A stretch of DNA of 62,979 nucleotides from IMG/VR virus record IMGVR_UViG_3300023216_001509; one strand, 5' to 3'. Position 1 is the first letter of the stretch; each line of letters begins with the position of its first letter. Under the pieces are notes generated by a model. That model saw nothing but the letters and a program-made list of their open reading frames with translations. It searched no databases and was not told the origin of the DNA. Made by a program: the position numbers and the translations under genes. The DNA comes from a virus. Below, in pieces: positions 26,422 to 62,979 of this stretch.

Positions 26422-27801
26422 CTAAATTTCCATTTCCTTTTTCTCATGCCACGTCCCATTCACGGGTGTGACTTCTGCCTCCACTTCCAGCGGAGTGATT
26501 ATCCACGGCCACGCTGCCCGCAAGTCTTCCGTCATTATTTGTTTTGCGGTGGTGAGGTAGGCACCCAACTCATCCTCATGGACATCCCCCACAATACTAT
26601 CGTGAATCTGCCCAACGATTTTAGAACGCATCCTGTTTTTGCCAAGCCATTTGTTGAGGCGGATAAGCGACCACAGCAGGCAGTGAAACGCTGACCCTTG
26701 AACCGGATAATTGATAACGTCGTTCCGCCCATAAACGCCATCGATGCGAAACCCTGTCAGGGTTGTGAACCCACCTTGTCGCAAGTATTTCTCCCACCAC
26801 TTTTTCTTCCATGCATCATAAACTTGGAACCGCTCTCCCCAGAAATTCTTCTCCACGGATTTGATGTGGTGTTCAAACGTCCCACGACGAGGGGGTTGTT
26901 TTGGATTGCAGGCGCCCAGGGAACTGATCCCGTTTTCACGCAGGTGGTCTTTGAGTGGGGTGTCCTCGATACGGTGGTTCATCTTACCGATGGCCTCCCA
27001 CAACGCCCGGGCGTTGTTGATGTAATAGTCGCCATAGAATTGTGGGAAGACGAACATATTCTTTCCGCAATACCGCATCCACTTAGAGACTTGAGTGGGG
27101 TGGCACTTGTAACACTCCGCCGCCATGTCCCGATGCATATCCTTGGAAGGGTCTTCAATATAGGAAACCATTGACGGGTCTTTGTGGTAGCAGGCAGCAA
27201 CCCGAACCTCGATGCCGCTGTAATCAATTTCGACAATGTGGTGGCCTTCACGTGGTATGAAGCAACGACGAATCACCTCGCCCATCCTTGGGTCGCGAAT
27301 AGGGAAGTTCTGGAAGTTGGGGCTGTCCGAACTGCTGCGGTAGGTTTGCACGGTGTGCAAGTTGAACACGGGATGCAAGTAACCATCACAGACCTCCCGT
27401 TTAATGCCCGCCAAGAAGGTGTTCCGAACCTTCTTTATCTTTTCCAATTCCAAGTAGCGGACAACAAACGGCTCATCAATGTTTTCAAACGAGGAACCGT
27501 CTGTCTTGGGCCTGCCGGTCTTTGTGAAGGAGGAACACTTATGCCCCATGATGTTGAATAGGATGTTCCCAAGCTGCTCCCGGCTTCCCAGGTTTGCCCG
27601 GGCGCCGTATTCCCGCCGCCAGACACGGTAGACCTCCATCCCTCTTAATTCGGCCTCCCCTGCTGCGATCTGCTGGCCTATCTCTTCGGACGTGGTGTTT
27701 AGATACTCCACATCAACCCGCATTCCATTGGCCTCGACGTTGGCCAGCGCAATGCAGCCATCGTGAAGCAATCGGTAGGCGTCAGCGGTGGTTGGTTTCA
27801 T
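26422..27801 (-). CDS. polA: Family A DNA polymerase, polymerase domain only
   Basis: Motif A DYSGIEVRVAA, motif B RYCGKNMFVFPQFYG, motif C QIHDSIV. No exonuclease motifs in this ORF. Confidence 0.9.
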   Translation of the reverse strand: MKPTTADAYRLLHDGCIALANVEANGMRVDVEYLNTTSEEIGQQIAAGEAELRGMEVYRVWRREYGARANLGSREQLGNILFNIMGHKCSSFTKTGRPKTDGSSFENIDEPFVVRYLELEKIKKVRNTFLAGIKREVCDGYLHPVFNLHTVQTYRSSSDSPNFQNFPIRDPRMGEVIRRCFIPREGHHIVEIDYSGIEVRVAACYHKDPSMVSYIEDPSKDMHRDMAAECYKCHPTQVSKWMRYCGKNMFVFPQFYGDYYINNARALWEAIGKMNHRIEDTPLKDHLRENGISSLGACNPKQPPRRGTFEHHIKSVEKNFWGERFQVYDAWKKKWWEKYLRQGGFTTLTGFRIDGVYGRNDVINYPVQGSAFHCLLWSLIRLNKWLGKNRMRSKIVGQIHDSIVGDVHEDELGAYLTTAKQIMTEDLRAAWPWIITPLEVEAEVTPVNGTWHEKKEMEI

Positions 27802-29015
27802 GGCAGCGGGTGTTCCAGGATTTCCATTTGTTTGATGGCGACCTTGTACTGCAACAGGGAATCGAGTCCGTTGTAAAGCAGCAGGTCTTTCGTTTCGATT
27901 AGATCAATCTGGTTGCTCTCCTGCCCCCTTATCCCCTGCAAGAACTTTTTGATGTGACCGTCGTAACTTGGTGCGCCCAGCAAGGCGAAGGCTTGGAACT
28001 TTATACTCGTGATTCCCGGTTGGTTGTCGATCACATGGGCTGCGAGCATGGTGTCCCAGTACCAATTCCGAACTCGATGGCCGAGGTGTCGCCGTGTCCA
28101 ACGGTCTTCGAATTTCAAGTTGCAGCCAATCTTGGGAAGTGGGGAACGCAGCAGTTCACCCACCGCTGTGACGGCGTCCCCATGCCAAGGGAAGGCGATG
28201 GTATGTTTGCCCCTCCAACAGACACTAGCGGACACAATGCGGGATTCTTTGTTGTCTGGTTTGATGCGGTCTGTTTCGTAATCAAAGGCCACCGCCCCTC
28301 CCCGTTTAATCATCTTGCGAATTTGGGCAGCAGCTTTTCTTGGTTCTTGGACAATGGTTATTTCCTTGCGGTAATCCGGAACCGTGTCCCACGGTTTGCC
28401 ATCGTGTTTTAATGCGTTGGCAATATGTTTGTTGAAATGGATTCGGAGGACTGGCGCTTTCATGTGGTTGCTGTTGATGGCGTGGTTCACATAGGCGGGC
28501 GAGTACGAAGGGCAGACCCACGCATTTAATTCCTGGCAGGGGATTTGCAAACCGAACCACCGATTTGAAACGCCAATGCTCCCCTTCCAGATATAAGGAA
28601 GTAGCGACCCCACGCCAGCGGTTCCCAAGGGGATGATCACATTGGGTTGGAGCGTGTTGATTGTCTTGATAAGGTTGGGTCGGCAGTAGTCTATCTGATC
28701 GGGGGTGGGCGGCTTGCCTCCGGTATGGCAGATCAATGCGGTTGTCACCCAGCAGTCCCGTAAGATATCTCCCGAGCATTTCCGAATGGCTGTTTCCAGT
28801 GGCAGGGAACTATTCGGTCGGGACAACAACCGCCCAGCGGTGTCGTCGTTATCACAAGGCGCCTCGTATACAATCAAAACCTTCCGCTTGCCTTGCCCCA
28901 CGGGTTCAAGTTTGGGGGACTGGCATTTCTTATACAGACCACATGCCCCGCATTTAGGAATGAGGCTTGTGGGTGGTTTTGAATCAAGAACGGAACTTGA
29001 AAAGAACCCGCTCAT
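27798..29015 (-). CDS. Fusion of a UDG family-4-like domain and a DnaQ-type 3'-5' exonuclease
   Basis: The N-terminus (CGACGLYKKC...VLIVYEAPCDNDD) resembles family-4 UDG with a non-canonical active-site motif. Exonuclease motifs are AFDYETD, NLKFEDRW and YNGLDS. ATGA overlap with the polymerase ORF. Confidence 0.65.
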   Translation of the reverse strand: MSGFFSSSVLDSKPPTSLIPKCGACGLYKKCQSPKLEPVGQGKRKVLIVYEAPCDNDDTAGRLLSRPNSSLPLETAIRKCSGDILRDCWVTTALICHTGGKPPTPDQIDYCRPNLIKTINTLQPNVIIPLGTAGVGSLLPYIWKGSIGVSNRWFGLQIPCQELNAWVCPSYSPAYVNHAINSNHMKAPVLRIHFNKHIANALKHDGKPWDTVPDYRKEITIVQEPRKAAAQIRKMIKRGGAVAFDYETDRIKPDNKESRIVSASVCWRGKHTIAFPWHGDAVTAVGELLRSPLPKIGCNLKFEDRWTRRHLGHRVRNWYWDTMLAAHVIDNQPGITSIKFQAFALLGAPSYDGHIKKFLQGIRGQESNQIDLIETKDLLLYNGLDSLLQYKVAIKQMEILEHPLP

Positions 29016-30046
29016 GCGTTGTCCGTTTCGTGAATGCTTAGGCTGGTGACGTAGACAAAGTTCCCACCATCCACCTTCAGTCTATCGGATGTGATTTCAC
29101 ACTCGTTGTGACGGGACACAAGGTCGGCCAGCAGCTTCGGTGAGATGCGGAAGCTTAGGCTGCTCCCCTTGTACTTCAAATTCTTAACCTCTGTGAACCA
29201 CCCGAAGTTCCCCTCCCCACGGATGCGGAGTTTGCCGGACTTCAACTGGATTGTCACTTGGTTGTCGTCGGTGTTTTCCGAAGAGAAAACCTCTGCCTTT
29301 TCCACCGCTTCCACCAGGCCAGTTGGCAAGGTGGTGGGTTCCCCCTTGAAGTTAATGATGGGAGTTAGGTCTGGGAAGTCGCTTGCCTCGTCGACGTAGC
29401 GCCGGCAGGACAACGTGAGGCCAGTTGGGTTGCGGAAATGAATCCAGGTTTCCGTTTCACAGAATTGGGTCATGCCGAGTTCGACGATATGTTTAATGCT
29501 GTCCCGCCTCACCAGGGTTGATTCTTTTATGGTTGTCTCCAACGTGTAGCGGGAGACTTGGAAGTTGTCGCTCGCTTCGATGTGGTGTGGAGTAAGGTGG
29601 AGGCACGTCAGGCGGAATTGGGACTCGTCGTCGCCGGCGCATTGGATAACAATTTGAACAGCGTCATTGAATTCTTCTGGCAGGTCTTTCCATTCGTCTG
29701 GCTGTTCAATGCGTTCAATGGGTAGGAGGATTTCCTGCTCCATTCGGATGCCAGCTTTTCGTCTCTTGCCTTCAATTATGAACTCCTCCTCGGTGCCAGT
29801 TACGCCCACCATGTCCTCGGGCAACTTCCGAAGGATACCAAGCAACGGTTCCGCTTGCACTGCGCCGCTCATTGTCAAAACGCAATCCTGCTTGCACGCT
29901 ATTTCGTCGTTGTAAGTTTGGACAGTCCCGTTCTGAAAGACGAAGCAAGAGGACTGTTCCATGACCTCCCGGGAGGACAGCCCCGCTTGCACGGACTCGA
30001 GTTGTTGTAGAAGTTTCTCACGGTTGACTTGCTGGGTTGTTCCCAT
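29012..30046 (-). CDS. dnaN: Sliding clamp (DnaN-like)
   Basis: 344 aa with a three-domain-like repeat pattern. Located next to the polymerase and near the clamp loader. Confidence 0.55.
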   Translation of the reverse strand: MGTTQQVNREKLLQQLESVQAGLSSREVMEQSSCFVFQNGTVQTYNDEIACKQDCVLTMSGAVQAEPLLGILRKLPEDMVGVTGTEEEFIIEGKRRKAGIRMEQEILLPIERIEQPDEWKDLPEEFNDAVQIVIQCAGDDESQFRLTCLHLTPHHIEASDNFQVSRYTLETTIKESTLVRRDSIKHIVELGMTQFCETETWIHFRNPTGLTLSCRRYVDEASDFPDLTPIINFKGEPTTLPTGLVEAVEKAEVFSSENTDDNQVTIQLKSGKLRIRGEGNFGWFTEVKNLKYKGSSLSFRISPKLLADLVSRHNECEITSDRLKVDGGNFVYVTSLSIHETDNA

Positions 30047-30058
30047 TTGTGCTTCTCC

Positions 30059-31207
30059 TTATTGCAAGAACCCGAACCCCTTGGGGCGGGTGCTTTGGAA
30101 TGGTTTGAGTTCAATTTGTTTTCGTGATTCCTCAAAGAACAGCAGGTTGGCAACACGGCGGTGAGTATGGTGGGTCACAATGCCCTTCGTTTCCTCTACG
30201 GGTTTCCCCTCCTCATCGTAATGCCATTCGCCCAAGGGTATGTCGAGGAACTCCAACCACTCCTCTACGATTTGCCGGTCGCCTTTAGTTAAGTTGAGGA
30301 GGTGGTATGGCGTTTTGATTTTGGGGGACTCGAACGACACCGAGATGAGATACGGTTGCCGGTCGAATACAAACTGGCCCCCACGCTTGTGCGGGACAAG
30401 GAGGTTGCCATAGGCGCCCATCTTCGTCCAACTGGTCGAATCAACGGAGTGCCAGGGATACGATGTCATCATATTAAATCCTGTGACACCGAACCCATGC
30501 ACGTCCACCGCCGGCAGTCTGTCCTTTGTATCACAAATGATATTGAAGCAGCGGTCGACCCAACCTTGGCAAGAGTCTTGCATTACACTGCCCACAAGGC
30601 CACCGAGTCCGATGTATTCGTATCCCTTTTTCAAGTAGCGTTCCAAGACACTCATTGGCGCCTTGTAATGAACAACGGGAACAGGCGTGAGGCCACGCTT
30701 CTCCAGTTCTACTTGGTTGCGCCAGGTAAGCTTGTGGGATGTTTTGTCCTTGGGCGCCTTGAGTTGGCCTCGGAAGGGAAGCACGTCGATGTTGGCATAG
30801 TGGTCAATCCCCTGCTGGTACTTGTTAATGAATTCGACGTACGAATCAACGTACGACCAGAATTCATCCGTGTCGTAGAACTCCCATTCCCCGCAACGGT
30901 TTTCCCTTGCGAACTCCTCAGCCCGTGTCCACAAGGTGAACGACCCGGAATCAAAGAAATGGCAGGATGGAACGCCCACTGGGATGTCCCTTGTCTCTAG
31001 GTGGGCGATGTCCTCCGGCCGAACCCCCTCCCGAGGTTGCCACGGTGGCGAATTGCGGCGGCTAATCTCATCCAGGATTGCTTGGAACCGTTTGGTGGGG
31101 CGCCCGCTGCCTACCATGTCATGGAAGGTCAGCATGAGAGTTGCGTCGTCGGCGAGTGTGATTTCGGGATTGCTCCTGCTGCCCTCCCCGGAATAGAAAA
31201 TGATCAT
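30059..31207 (-). CDS. dpdA: DpdA-type DNA guanine transglycosylase (TGT superfamily)
   Basis: FFDSGSFTLW, YIGLGGLVG, VHGFGVT and HSVDSTSW motifs. Adjacent to folE, queC, queE and queD. Confidence 0.75.
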   Translation of the reverse strand: MIIFYSGEGSRSNPEITLADDATLMLTFHDMVGSGRPTKRFQAILDEISRRNSPPWQPREGVRPEDIAHLETRDIPVGVPSCHFFDSGSFTLWTRAEEFARENRCGEWEFYDTDEFWSYVDSYVEFINKYQQGIDHYANIDVLPFRGQLKAPKDKTSHKLTWRNQVELEKRGLTPVPVVHYKAPMSVLERYLKKGYEYIGLGGLVGSVMQDSCQGWVDRCFNIICDTKDRLPAVDVHGFGVTGFNMMTSYPWHSVDSTSWTKMGAYGNLLVPHKRGGQFVFDRQPYLISVSFESPKIKTPYHLLNLTKGDRQIVEEWLEFLDIPLGEWHYDEEGKPVEETKGIVTHHTHRRVANLLFFEESRKQIELKPFQSTRPKGFGFLQ

Positions 31208-31211
31208 GAGG

Positions 31212-32186
31212 TTACTTTCGAATCAGCGCCATAAACTCGGCACGCACTTCCGGTTTGCGAAACACCCCCGACAAGGAGGACGTCAGCATGGTCGCGTTCT
31301 GTTTCTTAACCCCCCGTGCCACCATGCACAAGTGCTGTGCCTCCAACACGCAAGCGCTGCCCAGGCATTTGAGATGCAGGTCAAGTGCGTCTGTGATTTG
31401 CTGGCAGATGCGTTCCTGAATTTGTAATCGCCGAGCATAGATTTCTAACAAGCGGGCCAACTTGCTAATCCCAATGATCCGCCCGTTGGGGATGTAAGCA
31501 ATGTGCGCCGTCCCAAAGAACGGGATCATGTGGTGTTCACAGGTAGATTGAAATTCAATCCCACGCAACACCACCATCTCATCACTCGAGTCGTTTTCGA
31601 ATGTTTTGAATACGCTCTGGGGGTCTTGGTTGTAACCGGCAAACAACTCCCCATAAGACTTCACCACCCTTGCCGGTGTTTCCAACAACCCTTCCCGTCG
31701 TGGGTCTTCACCCAAGTATTCAAGGACGCGGACAATGTTTTCCTCTGGGCCGGTTTCACCCGACATCCTTTCCCAAGGAAACTGAACCCACTCCTGCCCG
31801 AGGTTGCTGTCCAAGTGGGTTTTGTCCACCAGGGCATAGAAGGGTTTCTCCGGATACAATTCCCGGAACTTTTTGCGGGTGGCACCCGAGTCAATGATGT
31901 CGTCGATGAACAATTGCGCCTCCTCTGGCGACTCCACCAGTTCCATGCCACCACCCGTGAACGTCCCATCTGTTAAGAGATGCGGGTGCTCACCGTACAT
32001 TTCTGATTGAACGGCCAGCGCGGCAGGGATACCACCTCTCGGAATTGGGTAGGCGCGCAGGAACGAGGTCTGCCCCTCCGCGGCGGTGGCGACCCGACCA
32101 GGTGCCTCGAGGCACATTGTGTTGACAAGGCGTTTCGCCTTCTGTTGTATGTCCGTCCATGACAGTTCAATCATTGGGTGCTCCAT
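31212..32186 (-). CDS. folE: Fusion of a Gpt-like phosphoribosyltransferase and GTP cyclohydrolase I
   Basis: N-terminal ~135 aa: PIPRGGIPAA, FIDDIIDSGATR (PRPP motif), EWVQFPWER (compare E. coli Gpt). C-terminal: GLLETPARV, STCEHHMIPF, RLQIQERI. An alternative start at 32174 gives an ATGA overlap. Confidence 0.8.
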   Translation of the reverse strand: MEHPMIELSWTDIQQKAKRLVNTMCLEAPGRVATAAEGQTSFLRAYPIPRGGIPAALAVQSEMYGEHPHLLTDGTFTGGGMELVESPEEAQLFIDDIIDSGATRKKFRELYPEKPFYALVDKTHLDSNLGQEWVQFPWERMSGETGPEENIVRVLEYLGEDPRREGLLETPARVVKSYGELFAGYNQDPQSVFKTFENDSSDEMVVLRGIEFQSTCEHHMIPFFGTAHIAYIPNGRIIGISKLARLLEIYARRLQIQERICQQITDALDLHLKCLGSACVLEAQHLCMVARGVKKQNATMLTSSLSGVFRKPEVRAEFMALIRK

Positions 32187-32875
32187 TCTTCCTTCGGTAG
32201 TATAACTCGGGATTCATATTCAATCGGGTCATCGATTTCGTTGTTGTGGAATGCTTCCAGGCGTTCTTGGCAGGCGCCACATTTCCCGCATGCCACCTCT
32301 TGGTCTTTGTAACACGTCCGGGTCAAGTTGTAGGGAACGTCATGTTGGTATCCCCACGCAATGATGGAGGTCTTGTCGCCTTGCAGGAAGGGGGCCATGA
32401 GCCGGACGTTCCCGTCTGTCCCGTGGTGGATGGCAGATTGCATGGCTTGGAAGAACTCTGGCCGGCAGTCCGGATAGATTTGATGGTCGCCAGAATGTAT
32501 CCCCAACCAGACTTCATTCGCCCCAAGGTTCCAAGCCACCCCAGCCAACACGGCAGAGAAAATTATGTTCCTCCCAGGGATGACGGTTTGCGTCATGTTT
32601 GCCTGCTCGTAATGACCTTCCGGAATATCCCCTCCCGAACTCATTAAATTGGAATTGAAGTTCGCCATCAATTCGTTCAGGGACATTAGGGTGAAGGGGA
32701 CGTTGTAATGCTGGGCAATCTTTTCGGCAGCGGCGTTCTCATAGGGGTTGTGCTTTGACCCGTAACAGAACCCAATGCACTCCACCTCCATCCCTGCCGC
32801 CAGCGCGGAGGCAAGTACCGTGGTCGAGTCCATGCCCCCACTCAAGGAAACGATTCCCGTGTCAACTCGTGCCAT
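32171..32875 (-). CDS. queC: 7-cyano-7-deazaguanine synthase
   Basis: VSLSGGMDSTT, VIPGRNIIF, and a C-terminal CGKCGACQER zinc motif. ATG at 32875 follows AAGGAGAG. Confidence 0.9.
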   Translation of the reverse strand: MARVDTGIVSLSGGMDSTTVLASALAAGMEVECIGFCYGSKHNPYENAAAEKIAQHYNVPFTLMSLNELMANFNSNLMSSGGDIPEGHYEQANMTQTVIPGRNIIFSAVLAGVAWNLGANEVWLGIHSGDHQIYPDCRPEFFQAMQSAIHHGTDGNVRLMAPFLQGDKTSIIAWGYQHDVPYNLTRTCYKDQEVACGKCGACQERLEAFHNNEIDDPIEYESRVILPKEEWSTQ

Positions 32876-32885
32876 TGCCCTCTCC

Positions 32886-33584
32886 TTATTCCAGTCCAAT
32901 AAACTTGTGCGTTTGAAGGCACAGCAAATAATCAAATCGATAGCATGATTCCAAGGCAGCTTCAACGTGTTTCTGGTTCAGCTCTGGGTCTTGTTCATCC
33001 ATTGGCTGGATGTAGATGGTGGACAGCGATTTGGCAAGATGGAGGTCTGGCGGCCGCGCTGGGGGCATGCCTCCAAGAGTTACGGTCGGCAACCCGTCCT
33101 CCTCGTCCACGAAGCCAGCAGCCAGAACATACTTCAACGCATTGATGTGAGGCAGCAACTCGGGGTGAATCTTGGGGGTCTTGGGGGAGCAAACAACAAC
33201 CACCTTTTCCCATGGAATGTTGTCGCGGTACAACACCCCATTCGTTTCGATTTGGACTCGGTAGTCAGCGGCCAGTAGCGCCACAATCATCGGGCCGATG
33301 TTTTGGCGGATGGGCTCGCCGCCGGTCAAGACGACCAATCCTGACCGACGGGTCGCCCGCACCAACTCAACCACTTCACTCGGTGAATACATTGTACGGG
33401 AACTCGTGTAATCCGTATCACAGAACGGGCATTGAAGGTTGCAACCAGCCAGGCGAATGAAAACAGAGGGCGACCCAATTTGTGGCCCCTCGCCTTGGAT
33501 GGTCAACCAGACTTTCACGATGTCGACATGCCCATCGTTCGGGGGCGCATATCCTTCGGTTGGTTGGCTGTTCACTTCCATCAT
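32886..33584 (-). CDS. queE: 7-carboxy-7-deazaguanine synthase (radical SAM)
   Basis: TIQGEGPQIGSPSVFIRLAGCNLQCPFCDT. Confidence 0.9.
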   Translation of the reverse strand: MMEVNSQPTEGYAPPNDGHVDIVKVWLTIQGEGPQIGSPSVFIRLAGCNLQCPFCDTDYTSSRTMYSPSEVVELVRATRRSGLVVLTGGEPIRQNIGPMIVALLAADYRVQIETNGVLYRDNIPWEKVVVVCSPKTPKIHPELLPHINALKYVLAAGFVDEEDGLPTVTLGGMPPARPPDLHLAKSLSTIYIQPMDEQDPELNQKHVEAALESCYRFDYLLCLQTHKFIGLE

Positions 33585-34033
33585 TCTGTCCTTCGGCGAT
33601 AAGTAGCCGAGTTGTTTTCAGTTTCAATGCACGTCACCCGTGTGACGTAAACACGCCCCTTCGTTTCGGCAGCGACAAAGTTGTTCACCATTTTCAAAAC
33701 GTGTCTGGCAAACATTTCGCAGCCGACATGCGGCATGGTTCGCAGTTGGATAATCCCTTCCTTGTCCAACTTCATAAAGGCGTTCAGTGCTGGGTCGTCC
33801 TCTGCCACTATTGTCGTATGATCAAAGAAGTCCGCGAGCTGCTTTTTCAGTTCGCCTGCCCCTCCGAAATCCATCACCCAATTCTTGTAATCCAGCCTCC
33901 CCTCAAATGTAACATCGAAGGCCAGGGCGTAACCATGTAAGAACCGGCAGTGGGACATATCCGCTCGCCACTGTCGGAAACAAGTGCTGAAGCCCGCAAA
34001 TCGTTTATTGCTCTGCCACATGAAATCGCTCAT
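33581..34033 (-). CDS. queD: 6-carboxytetrahydropterin synthase
   Basis: 150 aa. CRFLHGYAL...FD pattern of the PTPS/QueD family. ATGA overlaps on both sides. Confidence 0.8.
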   Translation of the reverse strand: MSDFMWQSNKRFAGFSTCFRQWRADMSHCRFLHGYALAFDVTFEGRLDYKNWVMDFGGAGELKKQLADFFDHTTIVAEDDPALNAFMKLDKEGIIQLRTMPHVGCEMFARHVLKMVNNFVAAETKGRVYVTRVTCIETENNSATYRRRTE

Positions 34034-34827
34034 GTCATCCTCCTCATAATTTGATTGCCCAGGTACTCCGCCACCTGCGGAACGACTGAGTTGCCTAGCG
34101 CTTTAAGTCTGTCCACCCGTCCGGGAAACCCATCAGATACTCTATCCAATTCGGATTCAGTGGCCCACCAGCCACTGCGTTCAGTGGAAGCGAGTTTCTT
34201 GCATATTGACTTGGGCCGGCGTTGTTGGCCGAGTCCTGCACCGTCGGTGTTGGTAGCAATGACGAAAATTCTGTCCCTCTCATGAGGCGCACCAAGGGCC
34301 GACGCTGGTATGCAATGCCACTCCGCATCAAACCCGAGCGCGGCCAGTTCCGAGAGTACGATTCCCAACCCCCGACCAAGTAACGCCGATACGTTTTCCA
34401 ACAAACAGATTCGGGGTCGGAGGTGTCCAACCAAGCGAATGACTTCATAGAACAGCGCGCTCCTTTCCCCCTTGAGCCCTTCTTTATTTCCTGCGATTGA
34501 AATATCTTGACACGGGAAACCCGCACAAATTAAATCCACAGCCAGGTGCTCCTCTGCCCAGCTTGCCGGCGGGAAGGTGGTCACGTCGTCCCACCTCCTC
34601 ACGTCTGGCCAATGCTTCTCCAACACTCGGCGGCAGAAGTCGTCCAGTTCTACTTGCCATTTGATTTGAAACCCAGCGCGTTGAAGACCCAAGTCCAGCC
34701 CGCCCACTCCAGCAAACAAACTGCCCACGGTAAAATCATTCACTCGGCCATTTCTCCGCGAGGGTTTCGTTGACATTTGTTTCATTGCCTTCCACCAGGG
34801 AGGTGAACCACCCCAGCCATCGTCCAT
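34030..34827 (-). CDS. DNA (cytosine-5) methyltransferase with a very short target-recognition region
   Basis: Motif I FAGVGG, motif IV FPCQDIS, motif VI LLENV, motif VIII ERDRIFV, motif X GNSVVP. The start is uncertain (34827, 34785 or 34776). Confidence 0.85.
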   Translation of the reverse strand: MDDGWGGSPPWWKAMKQMSTKPSRRNGRVNDFTVGSLFAGVGGLDLGLQRAGFQIKWQVELDDFCRRVLEKHWPDVRRWDDVTTFPPASWAEEHLAVDLICAGFPCQDISIAGNKEGLKGERSALFYEVIRLVGHLRPRICLLENVSALLGRGLGIVLSELAALGFDAEWHCIPASALGAPHERDRIFVIATNTDGAGLGQQRRPKSICKKLASTERSGWWATESELDRVSDGFPGRVDRLKALGNSVVPQVAEYLGNQIMRRMT

Positions 34828-61686: not shown

Positions 61687-61736
61687 CCGATCCGATCCGA
61701 TCCGATCCGATCCGATCTGATCCGATTCGTACCCCA
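61687..61736 (+). repeat. (CCGAT)n pentanucleotide array (8 perfect units plus 2 more), about nine GATC sites; inverted partner of 36-65
   Basis: Direct reading. Confidence 0.95.
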
Positions 61737-61745
61737 ACCTGACCA

Positions 61746-62225
61746 GCGAGATTTCCAGGTGGCTTCTCGGCAATCTCGTCCTACGAAACAAGGGGAATCG
61801 TTACAATCTCGCCCAGGTAAAACATTCCAGCGAGATTTCCAGGTGGGTTCTCGTCAATCTCGTCCTACAAAACAAGGGGAATCGTTAGAATCTCGCCCAG
61901 GTAAAACACCACCAATCTCCAGGCCGTTTCCCAGGTGTTTTCCAGCGAGATTTCCAGGTGGCTTCTCGGTGATCTCGTCCTACGAAACAAGGGGATCGGT
62001 ACAATCTCGAACGCCCGAAACCACCCCCATTTCCCCAGCTGAAAATCTCCAGTCAAAATCCCCAACCGAGATTCTCGGTGGGCTCTCGGTGATCTCGTCC
62101 TACGAAACAAGGGGATCGGTACAATCTCGCTGCACCTGAAACCACCGTTGATTTCCAGCAGCGAGATTCTCGGTGGGCTCTCGGTGATCTCGTCCTATAA
62201 AACAAGGGGATCGGTACAATCTCTC
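61746..62225 (+). repeat. Five dispersed ~65-bp direct repeats with internal dyad GCGAGAT...ATCTCG...ATCTCGC
   Basis: Units start at 61746, 61830, 61945, 62066 and 62161. A degenerate sixth lies near 62262-62318, and a truncated hybrid copy at 70-100. Confidence 0.9.
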
Positions 62226-62937
62226 CCAGGTTAATTCCCAGGCTGGTTCCCAGGTAAACGTGATCACGATTCCCAGGTGGCTTCTCGGCAATCTCCACCT
62301 ATGAAATAAGGGGTTTCCCAGGTTAATTCCCAGGCTGGTTCCCAGGCTAATCCCAGGGGCCAGGCCAATTCAATTTCCAGGGGGCGGTTCCAGGCTGGTT
62401 TCCAGGGGGCAGTTCCAGGCTGGTTTCCAGGTGGTGGTTCCAGGGCGCTCAACCTAGAAAACAAGGGTTTCCCAGGTTGGTTCCCAGGCTAGGCACCAGG
62501 CTGTTCCCAGGTGTTTCAAAATAAGTTTCCAGGGGGTGGGTTTCCAGGTCACATTCCAGGTCACATTCCAGGTCACATTCCAGGTGATTCTCCAGGTGAT
62601 TCTCCAGGTGATTCTCCAGGTTGTTTCCACTATGAAATAGGGGGTTTCCAGGTCACATTCCAGGTGATTCTCCAGGCTGTTTCCCAGGTGATTCTCCAGG
62701 TCACATTCCAGGTGATTCTCCAGGCCGTTTCCCAGGCTGTTTCCCAGGCTGTTTCCCAGGTGTTTCCCAGGCTGCCTCCCAGGTGTTTCCCTGCGTGTCC
62801 CCTACGTGTCCATGCGTGTCCCTGCGTTTCCCAGGTGTTCGCAGTTGTTGCCCTGCGTGTCCCCTACGTGTCCCTACGTGTCCCAGGTGTCTGCAGGGGT
62901 TTCCCTACGTGTCCCTACGTGTCCCTACGTGTCCCAG
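62222..62937 (+). repeat. Dense same-strand array of (T)TCCCAGG / TTCCAGG motifs, including 12-bp tandem repeats
   Basis: By-eye count of about 43 CCAGG and no CCTGG. ggtcacattcca x3 and ggtgattctcca x3 at 62548-62619. gtccctacgt decamers at 62790-62935. Confidence 0.9.
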
Positions 62938-62979
62938 GTGTTTGCAGGGGGTTTCCCAGGTGGCGGGCAAATCGGATCG
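62938..62979. repeat. Terminal overlap, copy 2 (identical to 1-42)
   Basis: See the feature at 1-42. Confidence 0.9.

Follow-up and report, generated by a model that had tools for sequence, protein, structure and literature searches.

The accepted phage toolkit for 7-deazaguanine DNA modification comprises FolE, QueD, QueE, QueC or its variants, DpdA1–4 and DpdL, DpdM and DpdN, and a purine phosphoribosyltransferase (PRT) is not in the list. Modification levels of 16–32% are known from phages 9g, CAjan, Rosebush and Iggy (25–32% in the 9g and CAjan types). Complete G replacement is described in three cases, CP220, phiST and immuto, with all cases argued to be post-replicative through DpdA (Cui 2023, PMC10516641). 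In nucleoside antibiotic clusters, the purine-PRT homologue TubE is encoded beside homologues of FolE, QueD and QueE and forms the ribotide of 7-carboxy-7-deazaguanine (CDG) from phosphoribosyl pyrophosphate (PRPP) in vitro, and ToyH has been proposed to do likewise with 7-cyano-7-deazaguanine (preQ0) (PMC6112128). The subject here is a gene at positions 31212..32186 of the IMG/VR virus record IMGVR_UViG_3300023216_001509, a stretch of 62,979 nucleotides referred to throughout as the window. Comparative analysis shows a single polypeptide in which an intact FolE is joined to a miniaturised relative of Gpt, the xanthine-guanine PRT (XGPRT) of E. coli, under strong constraint at the predicted PRPP- and base-binding positions. 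As far as we can tell, the fusion is widespread in phage deazaguanine systems and apparently undescribed there.

The two domains of the fusion protein

The gene, its domains and their principal elements are located as follows, PPi denoting pyrophosphate.

31212..32186, minus strand: PRT-FolE fusion gene, an open reading frame (ORF) of 324 amino acids (aa), uninterrupted, with its stop codon at 31212-31214
31758..32174, minus strand: Gpt-like type I PRT domain, residues 5-143 (hhalign, profile and Foldseek)
32031..32042, minus strand: putative PPi-binding loop P49-R50-G51-G52, aligned by hhalign to Gpt S36-R37-G38-G39
31947..31988, minus strand: lineage-specific 14-residue insert HPHLLTDGTFTGGG, residues 67-80, shared by some 3-5 of the 187 homologues
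31878..31913, minus strand: putative PRPP-binding motif LFIDDIIDSGAT, residues 92-103, aligned by hhalign to Gpt D88-D89..D92-T-G-G-T96
31770..31829, minus strand: putative base-pocket elements V-D-K122 and W133-V-Q-F-P-W-E139 (hhalign and 45-sequence profile)
31215..31748, minus strand: GTP cyclohydrolase I (FolE) domain, residues 147-324 (PF01227, TIGR00063 and Foldseek)

The N-terminal domain is recognised through its family rather than through the single sequence, for which support of a PRT identity is marginal. Searched alone, it matches the NCBIfam Gpt model NF006613 at E 1e-5 over some 40–50 residues around the PRPP motif and XGPRT of the PDB at E 0.0055 over a partial stretch around the same motif; PF00156 gives no match to the window protein at E ≤ 0.01, and its gathering threshold is not reached. 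A profile of 10 sequences finds XGPRT structures at 6e-7 over nearly its whole length, and one of 45 sequences at 1.8e-8 over profile positions 2–112 of 120, with hypoxanthine PRTs trailing at 3e-5. When 187 non-redundant domains are aligned with E. coli Gpt by hhalign, the probability is 98% (E 1.5e-13) over 125 columns spanning Gpt 4–142. NF006613 is matched by 38 of the 45 diverse members, all below its cut-off (best member E 9.5e-10), and PF00156 by 20 of them (E ≤ 0.01); weak matches of the family include PyrR. In a Foldseek search of the PDB with the first model of the domain, the top 22 structures are all XGPRT (probability 1.00, E about 3e-5, target-normalised TM-score (TMt) 0.52–0.58). 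At the family level, profiles and modelled fold are together decisive for a predicted type I PRT closest to E. coli Gpt. The designation of the original prediction, a Gpt-like PRTase fused to FolE, is thus right for fold and ancestry as judged from sequence and model, but not as membership of the Gpt equivalog. Its five segments matched to Gpt by eye are all paired identically by hhalign; its alignment along almost the whole of Gpt holds for the extent covered but is not gap-free, since about 20 residues are absent.

The conserved positions of the family fall on those which, in Gpt, we take to form the PPi loop (R37-G38-G39), the ribose and Mg ligands (D88-D89) and the 5'-phosphate loop (T93-G94..T96), to contact N7 (D92) and O6 (K115) and to stack on the base (W134); K115, W134 and D140 are the base-binding positions as we understand the XGPRT structure literature. 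Among the 187 homologues the PPi loop is kept as P49 in 181, R50 in 173, G51 in 186 and G52 in 187. The motif LFIDDIIDSGAT shows the hydrophobic strand, two acidic residues and D-(S/T)-G-x-T expected of PRPP binding, with D95 in 187, D96 in 185, D99 in 183, S/T100 in 184, G101 in 186 and T103 in 187. K122 pairs with Gpt K115, and W133-V-Q-F-P-W-E139 with Gpt W134-I-E-Q-P-W-D140, such that all four positions of the 6-oxopurine pocket (Gpt K115, W134, D92 and D140) have counterparts in K122, W133, D99 and E139; the counts here are K122 154, W133 182, F136 183, P137 182, W138 185 and E139 181. PRPP, PPi and base-pocket positions are therefore near-invariant although the 187 homologues share only about 30–45% identity, which indicates, on sequence grounds, selection for ligand binding or catalysis.

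The family differs from Gpt in the absence of any counterpart to about 20 Gpt residues (roughly 54–75, from helix 2 to the PRPP strand). This segment presumably comprises the core strand beta3 and the mobile catalytic loop. We take the loop of Gpt to lie after the second core strand and ahead of the strand of the PRPP motif, and no such loop is found there in the family. The insert HPHLLTDGTFTGGG is aligned by hhalign opposite Gpt residues ~53–71, where most homologues are gapped, and it is modelled at low confidence (block-mean predicted local distance difference test (pLDDT) about 62–78). A standalone homologue in phage phiST has a segment of Gpt length at the loop position, which the immuto homologue and the fused forms lack.

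The ORF, with 324 codons and no internal stop, continues into a standard FolE, as originally proposed: residues 148–323 match GTP_cyclohydroI (PF01227, E 6.5e-69), and the TIGR00063 folE score of 219.5 bits exceeds the equivalog cut-off of 181.6. The motifs C216-E-H-H219 and H285-L-C287 are intact and invariant in 118 fusions. A first AlphaFold2 model, made from a 10-sequence alignment, rendered FolE poorly (mean pLDDT 61) and was replaced by one from 118 full-length homologues, with a mean pLDDT of 91.9, a predicted TM-score (pTM) of 0.77 and a pLDDT of 92–97 in the core of the N-terminal domain. The latter is compact, with only 3 residues linking the domains. Against FolE of M. tuberculosis and T. 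thermophilus, Foldseek gives the FolE half a TMt of 0.88–0.89 and a root-mean-square deviation of 1.4–1.8 A at 46% identity. By sequence and modelled fold the C-terminal domain is shown to be a canonical GTP cyclohydrolase I, the predicted first step from GTP to preQ0. Separate profile searches of the two halves accordingly return a Gpt-like PRT (with family profiles) and FolE (PF01227).

Occurrence and genomic setting

The same architecture recurs in environmental and cultured phages. A scan of IMG/VR yielded 196 relatives, of which 80 loci were kept for counting, and the domain is fused to FolE in 80/80. Neighbours in these loci include QueE (73), QueD (72), detectable DpdA (69) and QueC (56), in the conserved order QueE-QueC-QueD-[PRT-FolE]-DpdA and with the same replisome module as in the window. 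The full-length query lists at least 120 metagenomic clusters of 290–320 aa which cover about 98% of the fusion protein; wherever named they are called 'GTP cyclohydrolase I', and nearly all carry PF01227 alone, a few with PF14489 in addition. The 118 aligned metagenomic fusion proteins, from independent sources, share the continuous architecture and a linker of a few residues. Among cultured phages, the fusion is found with hosts from at least six genera and is always annotated as GTP cyclohydrolase; carriers include Pseudomonas phages (NP1, PaMx25, JG054, JG012, Quinobequin-P09, PAJD-1 and others), Vibrio phages (VpKK5, 033B, GH32, 1.207.B) and phages of Stenotrophomonas, Xanthomonas, Variovorax and Sphingomonas. 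An assembly error or frameshift joining two genes is ruled out by the 80 loci, the 118 metagenomic proteins and the range of host genera, and its probability is negligible. The survey of domain architectures thus establishes the fusion as real, as first suggested, and as widespread across IMG/VR, metagenomic clusters and cultured phages, which the original prediction did not foresee.

With the N-terminal domain alone, a word-indexed search found only 9 proteins, falsely hinting at rarity; an exhaustive one brought up 2969 proteins at E ≤ 1e-3 and, at the stricter E ≤ 1e-10, 541. Matches to rIIB in T4-like Enterobacter, Cronobacter and Klebsiella phages, at E 0.2–1, were rejected as noise. Only 14 matching loci occur in 185,579 cellular genomes, three of them on contigs of 52–58 kb and four with the same Que-DpdA synteny; some of the 14 look like binned phage contigs.

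Several variants of the architecture were encountered. Chromosomes of Dehalococcoidia/Tepidiformaceae carry an isolated gene of the same PRT-FolE architecture (several loci, L087-L093), with altered FolE motifs (CERH for CEHH, and a changed HLCM region). No Que or DpdA gene was seen near these genes, whose neighbours appear housekeeping-like, few being readable by eye; ORF calling at these high-GC loci also yielded spurious opposite-strand ORFs. The Dehalococcoidia gene may be a cellular paralogue that serves another function. Some fusions reach about 580–594 aa, FolE being split by an insert of about 285 aa (model positions ~72/70; P0014, P0022, P0105, L025:9908-11650 and L032:9959-11743). 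In P0014 the insert is an intein (Pfam Intein_splicing, E 3e-15, with an HNH endonuclease), with a weaker match in P0105. Other N-terminal extensions of phage FolE occur in BFVD, namely A0A873WT87 (Providencia phage PSTCR4, 338 aa) and A0A2P1CKR2 (Pantoea phage Vid5, 271 aa); these do not register as the PRT domain and may be further, different fusions.

In the window itself, the genes around the fusion are the following.

34030..34827, minus strand: C5-cytosine DNA methyltransferase (PF00145, E 1.4e-44), at the head of the co-directional block
33581..34033, minus strand: QueD, 6-carboxytetrahydropterin (CPH4) synthase (PF01242, E 4.9e-18)
32886..33584, minus strand: QueE, radical S-adenosylmethionine CDG synthase (PF04055, E 7.4e-10)
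32171..32965, minus strand: QueC (PF06508, E 6.9e-56), with a probable start at M31 (32875)
30059..31207, minus strand: DpdA1-type DNA guanine transglycosylase (tblastn), directly downstream of the fusion gene

QueD, QueE, QueC, PRT-FolE and DpdA are thus adjacent and co-directional on the minus strand from 34033 to 30059, and four preQ0 enzymes together with DpdA constitute a phage 7-deazaguanine DNA modification cluster. The transglycosylase is assigned to the DpdA1 type because of its 30–33% identity (tblastn) to DpdA or tRNA-guanine transglycosylase genes of Nonagvirus, NP1, Iggy and Dp-1; its NCBIfam DpdA match is weak. The QueC encoded here is the plain one, and the window contains neither QueF nor an amidotransferase. 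From these two features, following Hutinet 2019 (PMC6884629), the modification of this phage is predicted to be 2'-deoxy-preQ0 (dPreQ0) at a fraction of G positions. The methyltransferase is co-directional with the preQ0 genes, and the phage may combine 5-methylcytosine with dPreQ0.

The start of the fusion protein probably lies downstream of the first ATG. The minus-strand letters 32186..32171 read ATG GAG CAC CCA ATG A, in which the M5 codon (32174-32172) shares ATGA with the TGA stop of QueC (32173-32171). Because of this overlap, the Joint Genome Institute gene call, which is the 320-aa form from M5 (protein P0153), and the homologues, which start at the same point, the true product is probably 320 aa long from M5 at 32174. 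Most genes of the block from QueD to the polymerase overlap or abut in the manner of QueC and the fusion gene, which suggests translational coupling.

Downstream of DpdA the block continues with an unannotated 344-aa protein, a uracil-DNA glycosylase (UDG)-like plus 3'-5' exonuclease protein, a family A polymerase domain and a clamp loader; elsewhere the window has the look of a siphovirus genome and includes a replication module. No ribonucleotide reductase (RNR), nucleotide kinase or MazG was seen among the window genes. Two ORFs share the family A DNA polymerase between them, the UDG superfamily and 3'-5' exonuclease parts lying at 27798-29015 and the polymerase domain at 26422-27801, and 47 related loci show the same split polymerase downstream of DpdA. 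No Pfam match was obtained for the 344-aa protein (29012-30046), which is encoded between DpdA and polymerase and occupies the same position in 59/80 related loci; it may be sliding-clamp-like, since a clamp loader adjoins and an MMDA13 annotation points the same way. The window end, 61687-62957, consists of dense non-coding repeats (CCGAT eight times, an 84-bp unit twice, arrays of 12-nt period (TTCCAGG..., about 16 copies), then periodic arrays of 10, 31, 52 and 62 nt). This region could, from its sequence, be iteron- or origin-like, or lie near a genome terminus.

Homologues of the domain also exist as separate genes: phiST CGPG_00045, CP220 YP_009169316, immuto26A_60, MaInes_00780 and BUCT-ZZ01 UTS52039. 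They are linked to the fused domain by tblastn (E 3e-7 for phiST, 1e-2 for immuto), local phmmer (E 6e-11 to 3.5e-4) and Foldseek (2.6e-6), and their settings are as follows.

Flavobacterium phage immuto_2-6A: 131-aa PRT directly upstream of FolE, in the order QueD-QueE-PRT-FolE-MazG-like-DpdA3-DpdN-kinase-like-QueF
Cellulophaga phage phiST and relatives: 142-aa homologue beside a weak deoxynucleoside monophosphate (dNMP) kinase-like gene, RNR two genes further
Campylobacter Firehammervirus-type genomes (15 records): one homologue each
Brevundimonas phage MaInes: RNR-dNMP kinase-FolE-PRT, with QueC/D/E elsewhere in the genome
Synechococcus phage BUCT-ZZ01: QueE-PRT-x-QueD-FolE

The family co-occurs with the FolE/QueD/QueE pathway in every phage checked, and 15/15 Campylobacter phage records matching FolE-type queries also match the PRT. 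In each of the three complete-replacement groups (CP220, phiST and immuto), a standalone homologue lies within a deazaguanine or nucleotide module, a presence likewise not foreseen in the original prediction. Genes beside the standalone PRT of phiST (L001:9422-10030 and L001:10713-13082), MaInes (L098:2654-7468) and immuto (L002:8971-13133) are dNMP-kinase-like, RNR, MazG-like and kinase-like, a set leading from base to dNTP. Two DpdA queries found no phmmer match in phage MaInes or in the BUCT-ZZ01 locus, DpdA subfamilies being very divergent.

The association of a PRT domain or gene with this pathway, in hundreds of environmental phages and several cultured ones, appears to have been overlooked because the domain falls below the Pfam threshold and the proteins are labelled 'GTP cyclohydrolase I'. 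The term 'phosphoribosyl' is absent from Hutinet 2019, Cui 2023, the Iggy paper and the MMDA13 paper, and the only PRTase to come up in a genome-mining preprint of 2026 is that of the tubercidin cluster. No description of the fusion was found in the phage deazaguanine literature searched, in agreement with the original prediction, which did not recall it as part of the toolkit.

Possible roles of the fused domain

The reading preferred here, with a probability of roughly 0.45, is that the domain serves guanine salvage or clearance coupled to DpdA. DpdA would expel one guanine from DNA for each preQ0 inserted, and the PRT domain would convert this free guanine, with PRPP, to GMP. Its removal would eliminate a base which DpdA could re-insert, pulling the exchange towards modification, and the purine would return, via host guanylate kinase and nucleoside diphosphate kinase, to the GMP/GDP/GTP pool drained by FolE. 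The net cost in guanine nucleotide per modified position would be roughly halved. Fusion would provide co-expression and a fixed stoichiometry on the FolE oligomer but not substrate channelling, since two kinase steps separate GMP from GTP. If true, guanine recycling would explain both the fate of the expelled guanine and the forward drive of the exchange; that fate is a question which, to our knowledge, nobody has addressed.

Several observations favour salvage. The gene is placed between QueC and the DpdA1-type gene, a Gpt-type pocket is retained with significant Gpt kinship at the family level, and the 80 related loci contain no conserved nucleotide kinase, MazG or RNR able to process a deazaguanine nucleotide. 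Coupling of PRT and FolE recurs independently, as the fusion here, as PRT upstream of FolE in immuto_2-6A and as FolE upstream of PRT in MaInes. The same role is in keeping with the presence of the gene in all three groups that replace 100% of their G, which would be expected to release the most guanine. Bacterial DpdA/B is assayed by exchange of [14C]guanine into DNA, and free guanine is hence a competent and competing DpdA substrate (PMC10164549).

Other observations weigh against it. In type I PRTases the mobile loop normally closes over the transition state, and loss of the loop region may have left catalysis weak or absent. The window domain scores only 25–27 bits against NF006613, far from the equivalog cut-off of 138 bits, and its sequence does not fix the substrate, because the base contacts (O6, the N1/N2 edge and stacking) would suit 7-deazaguanines equally. 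The phage searches gave no match to the domain in 9g and CAjan-type coliphages, and it appears dispensable since these phages still modify their DNA. Moreover, GMP is two steps from GTP, which leaves the choice of fusion partner unexplained by consecutive chemistry.

An alternative considered rather less probable is a 7-deazaguanine PRTase of the TubE/ToyH kind, which would convert preQ0 (or, elsewhere, CDG or 7-amido-7-deazaguanine (ADG)) and PRPP to a deazaguanine ribonucleotide, feeding a nucleotide-level route through kinase, RNR and polymerase or some other use. The TubE/ToyH precedent (PMC6112128) speaks for it, as do the FolE/QueD/QueE pathway in every phage with the family and the kinase, RNR and MazG-like genes adjoining the standalone forms in phiST, MaInes and immuto. 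A modified-dGTP route has moreover been proposed for Campylobacter phages (cited in Hutinet 2019, PMC6884629), whose 15 FolE-matching records all contain the PRT. In the window and related loci, however, such an enzyme would compete for preQ0 with the adjacent DpdA1-type enzyme, which uses the free base. Neither the window nor the 80 loci show conserved downstream nucleotide enzymes: beside the fused form there is no conserved kinase, MazG or RNR, only replisome genes. The partner is FolE, the first enzyme, rather than the base-releasing QueC or QueE, and 183/187 members retain an Asp opposite Gpt D92. By homology with D137 of HGPRT, we take this Asp to contact purine N7, an atom which deazaguanines lack. 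If deazaguanine nucleotide synthesis were nevertheless true, the choice between post-replicative and nucleotide-level incorporation would be reopened. The broader proposal, that the mini-PRTase family as a whole makes ribonucleotides of deazaguanines (CDG, ADG, preQ0 or 7-aminomethyl-7-deazaguanine, preQ1) as TubE does and is an overlooked phage modification enzyme, is held to be unlikely. On that proposal CP220, phiST and immuto would build a modified dGTP incorporated during replication, the PRT-adjacent kinase, RNR and MazG-like genes would execute the route, contrary to the all-DpdA view, and in the FolE-fused form this activity would have been brought onto the enzyme that opens the pathway; the proposal could also account for the inactivity of DpdL, the proposed CDG decarboxylase, on the free base.

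More doubtful still is a non-catalytic role on FolE, either as a sensor of PRPP, purine or nucleotide which tunes FolE output to levels of guanine nucleotides, PRPP or preQ0, or as a scaffold tethering pathway enzymes. Such a role would suit the fused forms, which miss about 20 residues including the presumed mobile loop where standalone phiST keeps a Gpt-length segment, and immuto blunts this point, being equally loop-less though a separate protein. A ligand-binding domain fused to the first committed enzyme of a pathway is a common regulatory layout, which this fusion resembles, and PRT-fold regulators are known in PyrR and PurR, the former being among the weak matches. The compact full-length model, with its pTM of 0.77 and 3-residue linker, and the Dehalococcoidia chromosomes, where the architecture stands away from Que and DpdA genes, are also in keeping with it. 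Yet the PPi loop, the acidic pair and the 5'-phosphate loop, which make up the three PRPP sub-sites, are near-invariant together with the stacking Trp, and a domain acting purely as base sensor or purely as scaffold could do without some of them; we also know of no allosteric mechanism in bacterial FolE.

Comparison with known systems

Gpt/XGPRT of E. coli and Yersinia (PDB 1NUL, 1A95 and 5XTK) is the best match of the N-terminal domain in sequence, profile and fold. Both share an N-terminal strand and helix, the R-G-G loop, the DDxxD(S/T)GxT motif, a Lys at the end of the following strand and the motif W-[IV]-x-x-P-W-[DE]. Unlike Gpt, the domain is phage-borne and fused to FolE, and the two are only about 21% identical. 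Standalone phage PRT genes have the same motifs as the fused domain, but are separate genes with about 25–30% identity to it. Cellular FolE (PDB 1WM9 and 9P8Z) has the same canonical domain as the C-terminal 178 residues of the fusion, at about 46% identity; where it carries an N-terminal extension, however, a whole extra domain stands in the fusion.

TubE and ToyH, likened here by description only, are similarly encoded with homologues of FolE, QueD and QueE, but they are standalone proteins of about 190 aa from clusters for free nucleoside antibiotics. Secondary-metabolite clusters of this type are reported to be without a transglycosylase (2026 genome-mining preprint); in contrast, a DpdA1-type gene adjoins the fusion and DpdA is detectable in 69/80 related loci. 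A precedent for an extra enzymatic domain on an enzyme of the preQ0 pathway, within a DpdA cluster, is given by Gat-QueC of phage 9g (PMC6884629). Gat-QueC alters the final base, giving 2'-deoxyarchaeosine (dG+), whereas the PRT domain described here has no evident part in base formation.

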